A DNA stretch of 64,000 nucleotides from Escherichia coli (GTDB lineage Bacteria; Pseudomonadota; Gammaproteobacteria; Enterobacterales; Enterobacteriaceae). Shown in pieces: positions 34,401 through 37,400 of the stretch. The stretch lies in NCBI RefSeq assembly GCF_036507355.1, contig NZ_AP027877.1; one strand, given 5' to 3'. Position numbers: made by a program. Every line of letters starts with the position of its first letter. Position 1 is the stretch's first letter.

Positions 34401-37400
34401 TTGAGTACGAACGCCATCGACTTACGCGTGCGCAGGCCGACGCACAGGAGCTGAAAAATGCCAGAGACTCCGCTGAAGTGGTGGAAACCGCATTCTGTAC
34501 TTTCGTGCTGTCGCGGATCGCAGGTGAAATTGCCAGTATTCTCGACGGGATCCCCCTGTCGGTGCAGCGGCGTTTTCCGGAACTGGAAAACCGACATGTT
34601 GATTTCCTGAAACGGGATATCATCAAAGCCATGAACAAAGCAGCCGCGCTGGATGAACTGATACCGGGGTTGCTGAGTGAATATATCGAACAGTCAGGTT
34701 AACAGGCTGCGGCATTTTGTCCGCGCCGGGCTTCGCTCACTGTTCAGGCCGGAGCCACAGACCGCCGTTGAATGGGCGGATGCTAATTACTATCTCCCGA
34801 AAGAATCCGCATACCAGGAAGGGCGCTGGGAAACACTGCCCTTTCAGCGGGCCATCATGAATGCGATGGGCAGCGACTACATCCGTGAGGTGAATGTGGT
34901 GAAGTCTGCCCGTGTTGGTTATTCCAAAATGCTGCTGGGTGTTTACCGGAGTCGGAAGTTGCCGGACATTGCAGATGAAGGCGCATTACAGAAATGGAGG
35001 TCTGTTCTACCGTTCCTCAAGAGATGGCTATGGTTTTGAGGAAGACTGGGCAGAAGTTTATACCTCGAAAAATCTTCCACCAGAAAGCTACCCAGTCGGT
35101 GCACCAATCCCGTGGCCATCAGATACCGTTCCGTCTGGTTATGCCCTGATGCAGGGGCAGACTTTTGACAAATCTGCTTACCCGAAACTTGCAGCCGCTT
35201 ATCCGTCAGGCGTGATCCCTGATATGCGTGGCTGGACGATTAAGGGCAAACCTGCCAGTGGTCGGGCCGTATTGTCTCAGGAACAGGACGGCATTAAATC
35301 GCACACCCACAGCGCCAGCGCATCCAGTACGGATTTGGGGACGAAAACCACATCGTCGTTTGATTACGGCACTAAATCCACGAATAACACCGGGGCGCAT
35401 ACCCATAGTGTTAGCGGTACGGCTGCTTCAGCCGGTGCACATACCCATTCGATAACATTTGTTTCAGGTGGCACCAAAGGTGCTCCGGGAAGTGGATCAC
35501 CTGATTATTCTAAATACAGTGTTAACACTTCTTCTGCAGGCGCTCATACGCACTCTGTATCGGGTACTGCTGCAAGCGCAGGTGCACACGCACATACTGT
35601 AGGTATTGGTGCTCATACGCACTCTGTTTCGATTGGCTCACATGGACACACCATCACCGTTAACGCTGCGGGTAACGCGGAAAACACCGTCAAAAACATC
35701 GCATTTAACTACATTGTGAGGCTTGCATAATGGCATTCAGAATGAGTGAACAACCACGGACCATAAAAATTTATAATCTGCTGGCCGGAACTAATGAATT
35801 TATTGGTGAAGGTGATGCATATATTCCGCCTCATACAGGTCTGCCAGCAAACAGTACCGATATTGCACCGCCAGATATTCCGGCAGGCTTCGTGGCTGTT
35901 TTCAACAGTGATGAGGCATCGTGGCATCTCGTTGAAGACCATCGGGGTAAAACGGTTTATGACGTAGCGTCAGGGGACGCGTTATTTATTTCTGAACTCG
36001 GTCCGTTACCGGAAAATGTTACCTGGTTATCGCCGGAAGGGGAGTTTCAGAAGTGGAACGGCACAGCCTGGGTGAAAGATGCAGAAGCAGAAAAACTGTT
36101 CCGGATCCGAGAGGCGGAAGAAACAAAAAACAGCCTGATGCAGGTAGCCAGTGAGCATATTGCGCCACTTCAGGATGCTGTGGATCTGGAAATCGCAACG
36201 GAGGAAGAAATCTCGTTGCTGGAAGCATGGAAAAAGTATCGGGTATTGCTGAACCGTGTTGATACGTCAACTGCACAGGATATTGAATGGCCAGCACTGC
36301 CGTAGGGTAAAACATATAAATTCTATAATTAGATGTATCTTTCCATTTACGGCAAGGAAGGGGGCTTGGAAGACGTAAAGCATCTCACACCGAGATTATT
36401 TTTTATATGTCAGGTGTCTGAAGTTTTGCTTTGGCTCTTAAAATGGTTTGCCGCGAGGTTTTGAATTCCCGGGCAATGGCACTTATACTTACACCTGACT
36501 TAATTCGTTCGAATACCGCCTGTTTCTGTTCTTCATTTAACACAGGTGGTCGACCAAAACGTTTCCCTGCGCCGCGGGCTCTTACTATCCCGGAATGAGT
36601 GCGTTCAAGTAAAAGGTCTCGTTCAAATTCAGCGACTGCTGAAATTACTTGCATCATCATTTTTCCTGTTGGACTGGTCAGGTCAATGCCCCCCAATGCT
36701 AAGCAATGCACTCTGATACCTGTTTCGGTCAGTTGTTCCACTGTTTTCCTGATATCCATTGCATTACAACCAAGGCGATCCAGTTTTGTCACAATCAATT
36801 GATCACCACATTTCAGGCGAGCAAGCAACCGGTTAAAACCAGGACGCTCACTGGTTGCTGCTGAGCCGCTAATGTGTTCTTCGATTATTTGCTGAGGTTT
36901 GATTTTAAAACCTGCACTTTCGATTTCCCGGCGTTGATTTTCGGTGGTCTGATCCAGCGTTGATATCCGACAGTAAGCAAAAATTCGAGACATAGTGAGA
37001 CTCTATACGAAATTGGTGTTCATATCATAATGCATCTCAGAAAATAATTATGATTATTTTTGTGCATATTTGTATGTACACGTTCGAAAATAAACGAATG
37101 CGTATGCAACCCCGTAATTTTGGTGAGACCCAAAATCGATTTTGTGAAAAATGGCTTTAACTCGGTTTGTTTTTCGAGTTCCGGGCGGACTCAAGGAAGA
37201 AGAATAGTGTTGCGTGTTATTTTAACCAGATTTCAAGTTGTTTGGTCGTGGAAAAGTGGAGCAAAATGTTGTTAAAGTGGAAAAATGATAAAAAAGTAAG
37301 TTTATTATATTACATTTTACCATTTAAATTTTGGTTGTCTTTAAGAACTGATATCGCTGTTTGTAATAATTCTTTGTTATCCAGCCATGATTTTTTCTTT

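Follow-up and report, generated by a model that had tools for sequence, protein, structure and literature searches.

A histidine-rich array in the Qin prophage as the probable needle of a decayed lambdoid tail fibre

The Qin locus and its seven His-x-His boxes

We analysed a 64,000-nucleotide (nt) stretch of Escherichia coli DNA (RefSeq assembly GCF_036507355.1, contig NZ_AP027877.1; hereafter the window, in which all positions are given unless a locus is named), and within it a histidine-rich open reading frame (ORF) of 272 amino acids (aa) that lies in the Qin cryptic prophage region. Along the window the order is a nohA-type Nu1 gene, the first 90 codons of gpA, the His-rich ORF, tfaQ and, on the minus strand, pinQ. 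The flanks are colinear with Qin of K-12 MG1655 (99.8% identity over 28524-34685 and 98.6% over 35542-40615), and the stretch in between is unlike K-12. An original prediction, made from the sequence alone, had described the ORF as a His-rich repeat array in a tail-fibre remnant. Our analysis indicates that this 'repeat array' is very probably the set of seven His-x-His (HxH) boxes of a T4 gp37-type receptor-binding needle, located at the C terminus of a lambdoid side tail fibre (Stf) that has decayed here. The ORF and its parts are as follows.

34912-35730, plus strand: His-rich ORF, 272 aa
35098-35241, plus strand: Collar domain, equivalent of T4 gp37 D10, aa 63-110 (Pfam PF07484, E = 1.4e-12; aligned to 2XGF)
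35296-35451, plus strand: ascending half of the needle, HxH boxes 1-3 (His codons 35302-35310, 35398-35406, 35440-35448)
35449-35544, plus strand: tip insert in the interval between boxes 3 and 4, aa 180-211, counterpart of the T4 gp37 tip subdomain 932-959
35539-35652, plus strand: descending half of the needle, HxH boxes 4-7 (His codons 35545-35553, 35587-35595, 35614-35622, 35641-35649)
35653-35727, plus strand: C-terminal strand returning to the collar, identical to the T4 gp37 C terminus and conserved in 245 homologs

Histidine makes up 5.5% of the ORF, and 14 of its 15 His residues fall in seven HxH motifs, at aa 131, 163, 177, 212, 226, 235 and 244 (nt 35302-35649). Across 100,000 composition-preserving shuffles the mean was 0.8 HxH motifs and the maximum 6, with zero shuffles reaching seven; the seven boxes are therefore far beyond chance, and the predicted array is indeed present. 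It consists of one solitary KSHTHS, two 20-aa double units (aa 161-180 and 210-229) and one shortened double unit of 15 aa (aa 233-247). The earlier count of 'at least three' long repeats was thus essentially right as a description but slightly too high, as only two units reach 20 aa.

The last 215 residues of the ORF match PDB 2XGF (T4 gp37 785-1026) with E = 9.2e-90 (query 27-241 against chain 27-242), and its seven HxH motifs align one-to-one with the seven of gp37, which are iron sites. Such HxH iron boxes are textbook structure in the fibre tips of both the gp37 and the lambda Stf type. The boxes follow one another at intervals of 32-14-35-14-9-9 in the window, against 32-14-37-14-9-9 in T4, a Collar domain precedes the needle, and the C-terminal 15 aa are identical in the two proteins. 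Identity to T4 gp37 is 69% overall, reaching 79% from the collar to box 3 and 75% from box 4 to the C terminus, with 23% in the interval between boxes 3 and 4; box 3 itself aligns to T4 H929/H931, and aa 180-211 align to the T4 tip. Pfam assigns both Collar (PF07484) and Phage_fiber (PF03335) to the ORF, and two protein searches returned 2,017 and 2,081 homologs, in agreement with the original view that arrays of this kind are typical of side tail fibres.

A chance His-rich ORF, or a generic metal-binding segment of low complexity without any kinship to tail fibres, could also present this His content together with short motif repeats. That explanation is refuted by the 2XGF match and the identical C terminus, as well as by the Collar domain, the adjoining chaperone gene and the thousands of tail-fibre homologs, and we give it practically no credence.

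The structure of gp37 suggests how the boxes would be used. Its collar domain D10 comprises residues 811-881 and 1010-1026; into it is inserted the needle D11, the stem of which is formed by residues 882-931 and 960-1009, whereas the tip subdomain 932-959 is an insertion that binds lipopolysaccharide and OmpC (PMC6957217). Seven iron atoms are coordinated along the needle axis, and either H929A or H931A abolishes plaque formation (PMC6957217). HxH motifs are a recognized iron-binding feature of T4 and lambda fibres (PMC11705849). In a working fibre of the type found here, three parallel chains would each contribute two His per box, such that six His would hold one iron on the fibre axis. The strand ascending from the collar to the tip would carry three boxes and the returning strand four; the 32 residues between boxes 3 and 4 would form the distal receptor-binding tip, and TfaQ would act as folding chaperone. 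A homotrimer with octahedral iron coordination by six His per site is what we infer from the homology together with the gp37 work (PMC6957217). The array itself is already-known biology, namely the HxH needle of gp37 and Stf in an annotated Qin stfQ remnant.

Box number and the variable tip

The original prediction also proposed that the repeat number may vary by slippage. Tandem Repeats Finder detected 0 tandem DNA arrays in the array at a score of at least 30, and no exact DNA repeat is longer than the one of 17 nt at 35542/35611. When the 18-nt box segments were compared pairwise, 20 of 21 pairs shared 8-14 identical nt, with boxes 4 and 6 matching at 17 of 18. What repeats is a motif in the protein, with no tandem repetition in the DNA, and the DNA of the boxes has diverged by codon choice.

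To assess conservation among close relatives, we took the best 120 database homologs. Seven boxes with the spacing 32-14-X-14-9-9 were found in 107 of these, where X, the tip, is the sole variable and ranges from 35 to 56; K-12 StfQ has the same seven boxes and spacing, with X=52. The other 13 comprise two His point mutants, a frameshift, truncated contigs, alternative short tips and two genuine deletions. One of the deletions (L202) lacks 69 nt exactly between the near-identical DNA of boxes 4 and 6, which form its end points, and the other (L203) has lost 147 nt in the interval from box 3 to box 5, at the microhomology GGTGCACA. Both lie in heavily decayed prophages, in a portal/stf and a tape-measure/stf fusion, respectively. 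Short-homology deletion between boxes does occur, but it is rare and was seen only in genes that were already dead.

More distant homologs were collected by searching 1.84 billion cluster representatives, and 245 complete C termini (P0001-P0264) were parsed from their conserved end. The spacings that recurred, with the number of boxes and of sequences, were as follows.

32-X-9-9: 5 boxes, 39 sequences
42-X-9-9-9: 6 boxes, 27 sequences
22-14-X-14-9: 6 boxes, 2 sequences
32-14-X-14-9-9 (the window and T4 included): 7 boxes, 157 sequences
52-X-9-9-9-9: 7 boxes, 5 sequences
42(41)-14-X-14-9-9-9: 8 boxes, 10 sequences
22-14-14-X-14-14-9: 8 boxes, 1 sequence

These layouts follow a pairing rule, which holds in 241 of the 245: as many 14-residue steps follow the tip as precede it, and subtracting 12 from the first gap and dividing by 10 gives the count of 9-residue steps. 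Four sequences depart from the rule, namely two His point mutants, the L202 deletion and a protein that has an additional HxH within its first gap; L203 has lost its tip and cannot be scored. An unpaired gain of a box was not seen in any of the 245 sequences. In our reading, a module can be added to the ascending strand only together with a counterpart on the descending one, which would fit the equal 50-residue stem halves reported for gp37 (PMC6957217). A 14-residue box unit going up would pair with a 14-residue box unit coming down, and a 10-residue unit without a box going up with a 9-residue box unit coming down. In evolution, boxes would be gained or lost only as matched modules, because the ascending and descending strands must keep equal length. 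We did not find the pairing rule stated in the accessible literature, which did not cover the T4 tip structure paper; this rule and the deletion hot spot described below are the only parts of our analysis that go beyond what we found described.

These observations bear on the alternative that the array is a repeat prone to slippage or recombination, with a copy number that changes often and tunes fibre length or host range. Homologs carry 5-8 boxes, and L202 and L203 document loss between boxes at short homology. Against frequent change stand the lack of a head-to-tail DNA array, the divergence of the box DNA and the invariant count in most close homologs, the remainder of which is largely explained by point mutations, truncations, frameshifts and alternative tips. 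Both box-to-box deletions occurred in decayed fusions, and L202 violates the pairing rule. The architecture is not strictly identical in all homologs, as the range of 5-8 boxes makes clear, but its changes are coupled on both strands, and as box number changes in coupled steps, a single slippage event cannot produce such a change. We consider copy-number change of this kind very unlikely, and the proposal that the number varies by slippage is not supported for this array, in which box number is set by the fold. Comparison or engineering of fibre alleles should accordingly not assume that box number varies freely by slippage, and changes in fibre length need matched modules on both strands.

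Variation is instead concentrated at the tip. In 154 seven-box homologs the stems are on average 91% (ascending) and 96% (descending) identical, and among their tips there are 50 distinct sequences, which fall into 12 length classes (30-51 aa). The conserved boxes thus appear to bracket a swappable receptor-binding cassette, with host-range variation probably carried by exchange of the tip between conserved boxes and not by box number. Studies of T-even adhesins by Tetart and colleagues from 1996 and 1998 are said to agree with a swappable tip. Specificity would then reside in the tip cassette and its conserved boxes would serve as flanks.

Truncation of stf at a recurrent joint

The features that surround the needle, and the joint at which the fibre gene begins, are as follows.

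34157-34702, plus strand: nohA-type terminase small subunit, a Nu1 homolog (Pfam PF07471, E = 2.4e-101; 99.8% identity to K-12 Qin up to 34685)
34677-34945, plus strand: lambda-type terminase large subunit gpA, N-terminal 90 codons, up to the deletion joint (Pfam PF05876; colinear with EC26 gpA to 34945)
34944-34945, plus strand: TA dinucleotide at the gpA/stf deletion joint
34945-35730, plus strand: Stf remnant, codons 856-1116 of 1116, with 261 open codons and a stop but no native start (99.4% identical to L004 6001-10057)
35730-36305, plus strand: tfaQ, tail-fibre assembly chaperone (Caudo_TAP), its start overlapping the stf stop (Pfam PF02413, E = 5.4e-44; annotated tfaQ in matching genomes)
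36403-36993, minus strand: pinQ, serine DNA invertase, convergent with tfaQ (Pfam PF00239, Resolvase, and PF02796, HTH_7)

Strain USMARC-50748 (L004) carries an intact Stf of 1116 codons in the same chromosomal position, and this copy is 99.4% identical to the window from the joint on. Compared with it, the window retains only codons 856-1116 and has neither the N-terminal attachment domain nor the shaft, which confirms that the ORF is a tail-fibre remnant; the few differences between the remnant and the intact copy pre-date the truncation. Homology to the tail fibres of other E. coli begins at 34944, and the 11 codons that open the ORF consist of gpA DNA in the wrong reading frame. The remnant is out of frame with the gpA fragment, the frame of which continues in stf DNA as far as a stop at 35039. 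Over 33900-36450 the plus strand showed no promoter-like site, and no ribosome-binding site was evident for the internal ATG at 34975. The remnant is probably not made as a fibre, because the deletion joined gpA codon 90, out of frame, to Stf codon 856.

Protein matches revealed many unrelated phage genes fused to Stf at the same residue (...|TGVGSC). With joints taken from the DNA of the encoding contigs and from a metagenome scan, we found seven independent deletions that have different left partners and a right end at one TA (window 34944-34945; L004 6001-6002), which lies directly 5' of CCGGAGTCGG / CCGGAGTCGGAAGTTGCCGG in stf. The left partners are as follows.

Window: gpA codon 90
L194: gpA codon 82
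L005-7: a different terminase
L008-9: lom
L204: a ParB-like gene
L205: a portal-like sequence
L206: an unidentified gene

The joint in the window reads GGTGTT-TA-CCGGAGTC; in native gpA the sequence goes on as TATGCC, and the native stf counterpart is TTCTA-TA-CCGGAGTC. Native copies of five of the seven left partners were present among the fetched loci, each with TA at the joint, and the best match for L206 differs by one base; the L205 partner, which we take to be lambda portal gene B, had no native copy among these loci. Homology to stf at the joints is only 2 nt, except for the other terminase (8 nt), and three left partners read GGGTA (joint GGTACC). The metagenome scan, which covered 77 contigs, contributed one hot-spot joint, that of L194. 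An exact-pattern scan of IMG/VR gave 115 loci, all native full-length stf save one diverged variant, and is uninformative on deletions. We also considered whether the window joint arose as an in-frame gpA-Stf fusion that later lost TA by slippage, and dropped this possibility because the native partners place the joints at the shared TA.

A second family of Stf pre-collar sequences, that of K-12 StfQ (L001, at YPTAYGN codons, with L207, L208 and L209), shows recurrent joining as well, at a TA within the palindrome GGATATCC. Its three left partners are the capsid E gene, a sequence beside a NinX-family gene and a DUF977 gene.

The precision of these joints raises the possibility that the remnant starts not at a random deletion end but at a site of sequence-specific breakage and rejoining, where an enzyme would cut tail-fibre genes precisely along the 5' border of the receptor-binding cassette. 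We put this forward tentatively and consider it doubtful. Candidate activities would be a transposase-like one that targets TA, or exchange at a TA core in the manner of a serine recombinase. Visual inspection of the hot spot for resemblance to Hin/Gin half-sites, lambda Int core sites, restriction sites, Chi and hairpins produced nothing convincing; the TA site is not a Pin/Gin-type crossover site and has no repeat partner near tfaQ or pinQ, and a pin gene adjoins the TA joint in some cases only. If such cutting does occur, it would repeatedly leave stf-C and tfa as a salvageable cassette in decaying prophages, and a recurrent, precise deletion end of enzymatic origin would add a new piece to the mechanism of tail-fibre mosaicism.

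A further alternative is that the cell still uses the remnant as a free collar-needle-tip trimer that starts from the ATG at 34975, is folded by TfaQ and serves, for example, as a receptor-blocking decoy against related phages. Its frame is intact, and the part that was kept corresponds to the crystallized collar-needle-tip of gp37 (2XGF, 785-1026) together with a chaperone gene. Many independent deletions end just upstream of this unit, and the homolog cluster P0032, with 831 member sequences, is called from the same Met. However, the promoter-like and ribosome-binding sites that such use would call for were not found, the near-identity to the intact prophage copy means that the open frame may simply be young, and end points that are precise to the nucleotide are not expected from selection for a domain. 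We regard continued use of the remnant as very unlikely.

Several points nonetheless weigh against our interpretation of the ORF as a decayed gp37-type needle. We infer iron binding, trimer geometry and the lack of expression of the window allele from sequence, and the up/down pairing geometry from sequence spacing and the published domain limits of gp37. The two single box-to-box deletions indicate that box number is not absolutely fixed. In addition, the 261 codons are free of stops and the internal ATG (MKAHYRNGG, 34975) precedes the whole collar-needle-tip unit, at the Met from which the P0032 cluster is called, so that a free tip fragment might be expressed.

As DNA, a decayed needle may retain a role. 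Lambda picks up markers from the stf-tfa region of K-12 Qin at ~2e-6 per infection, mainly via Red-beta (PMC3945230). The remnant in the window could still act as donor DNA for incoming phages, and because stf-tfa remnants are documented donors to infecting lambda (PMC3945230), the tip alleles of such remnants are part of the host-range reservoir.

A 25-nt inverted repeat (84% complementary, with a 7-nt loop) lies at 34076-34132, just 5' of nohA in the cos-proximal region.

Relation to known tail-fibre systems

The distal end of T4 gp37 resembles the window in its Collar domain, its seven HxH boxes in the same register, its C-terminal strand and the dedicated chaperone gene downstream. The tip insert of the window, in contrast, is unrelated to that of T4 (23% identity; X=35 versus 37), and the window copy derives from a temperate lambdoid Stf, is truncated at its 5' end and is very probably unexpressed. 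Full-length lambdoid Stf of the lambda Stf/StfR type, represented by L004, has last 261 codons that are 99.4% identical in DNA to the window and is likewise followed by tfaQ and pinQ, but it also has the N-terminal attachment domain, the Ala/Ser-rich shaft and the J-lom-stf context that the window lacks.

In the invertible segments of Mu (Gin), P1 (Cin) and e14 (Pin), as in the window, a serine invertase gene adjoins stf-tfa. The window differs in having neither a crossover site nor an inverted second cassette, and in that pinQ is convergent with tfaQ. With the e14 crossover site derived from K-12, the pix sequence was absent from the window locus at up to 3 mismatches; a generic Hin-family pattern had no match near the locus, and no inverted repeats bracketing stf-tfaQ and no inverted second cassette were found. 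We therefore rejected a Pin-type invertible segment at stf-tfaQ, which has no crossover sites or bracketing inverted repeats. A degenerate half-site, TTTAACTCGGTTTGTTTTTCGAG, is located at 37150-37185, ~160-190 base pairs upstream of the pinQ start, and resembles a decayed Gin/Pin crossover site (AAACC NN GGTTTG...). It suggests that pinQ may have lost its invertible segment from the ydfK side and has no functional link to stf-tfaQ. Separately, in three homologs (P0097, P0058 and P0081) the collar-needle cassette directly follows a motif encoded by an invertase crossover site (NLGLGEG/LGLGE or YLGLEN), so that the same cassette also serves as the variable part of Pin/Gin-type invertible fibres.

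The gpA/stf joint of the window (34885-35005) is absent from all 5,426 complete RefSeq E. coli genomes, and strain PigCaeca_2 has a terminase/stf joint at the same stf position. Qin of EC26 (L002 4576-7190) retains gpA, major capsid gene and FI fragments between gpA and stf, and its FI/stf joint, at the window equivalent of 34977, is 33 nt further in than that of the window and shows ordinary microhomology. This extra debris and the separate joint indicate that Qin decays stepwise and differently among strains. K-12 StfQ (b1547) occupies the same locus, with the same order nohA-stf-tfaQ-pinQ, seven HxH boxes and flanks that are 98.6-99.8% identical. Two stretches diverge, window 34685-35092 and 35423-35542, set against K-12 L001 5840-5575 and 5244-5074. 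In K-12, nohA is fused directly to a different pre-collar module (320 aa); in the window, it is gpA codon 90 that adjoins the other module (261 stf codons). The tip of K-12 StfQ is 17 aa longer than that of the window and unrelated in sequence. These contrasts between two copies of one locus would imply either independent decay or replacement of the cassette by recombination.

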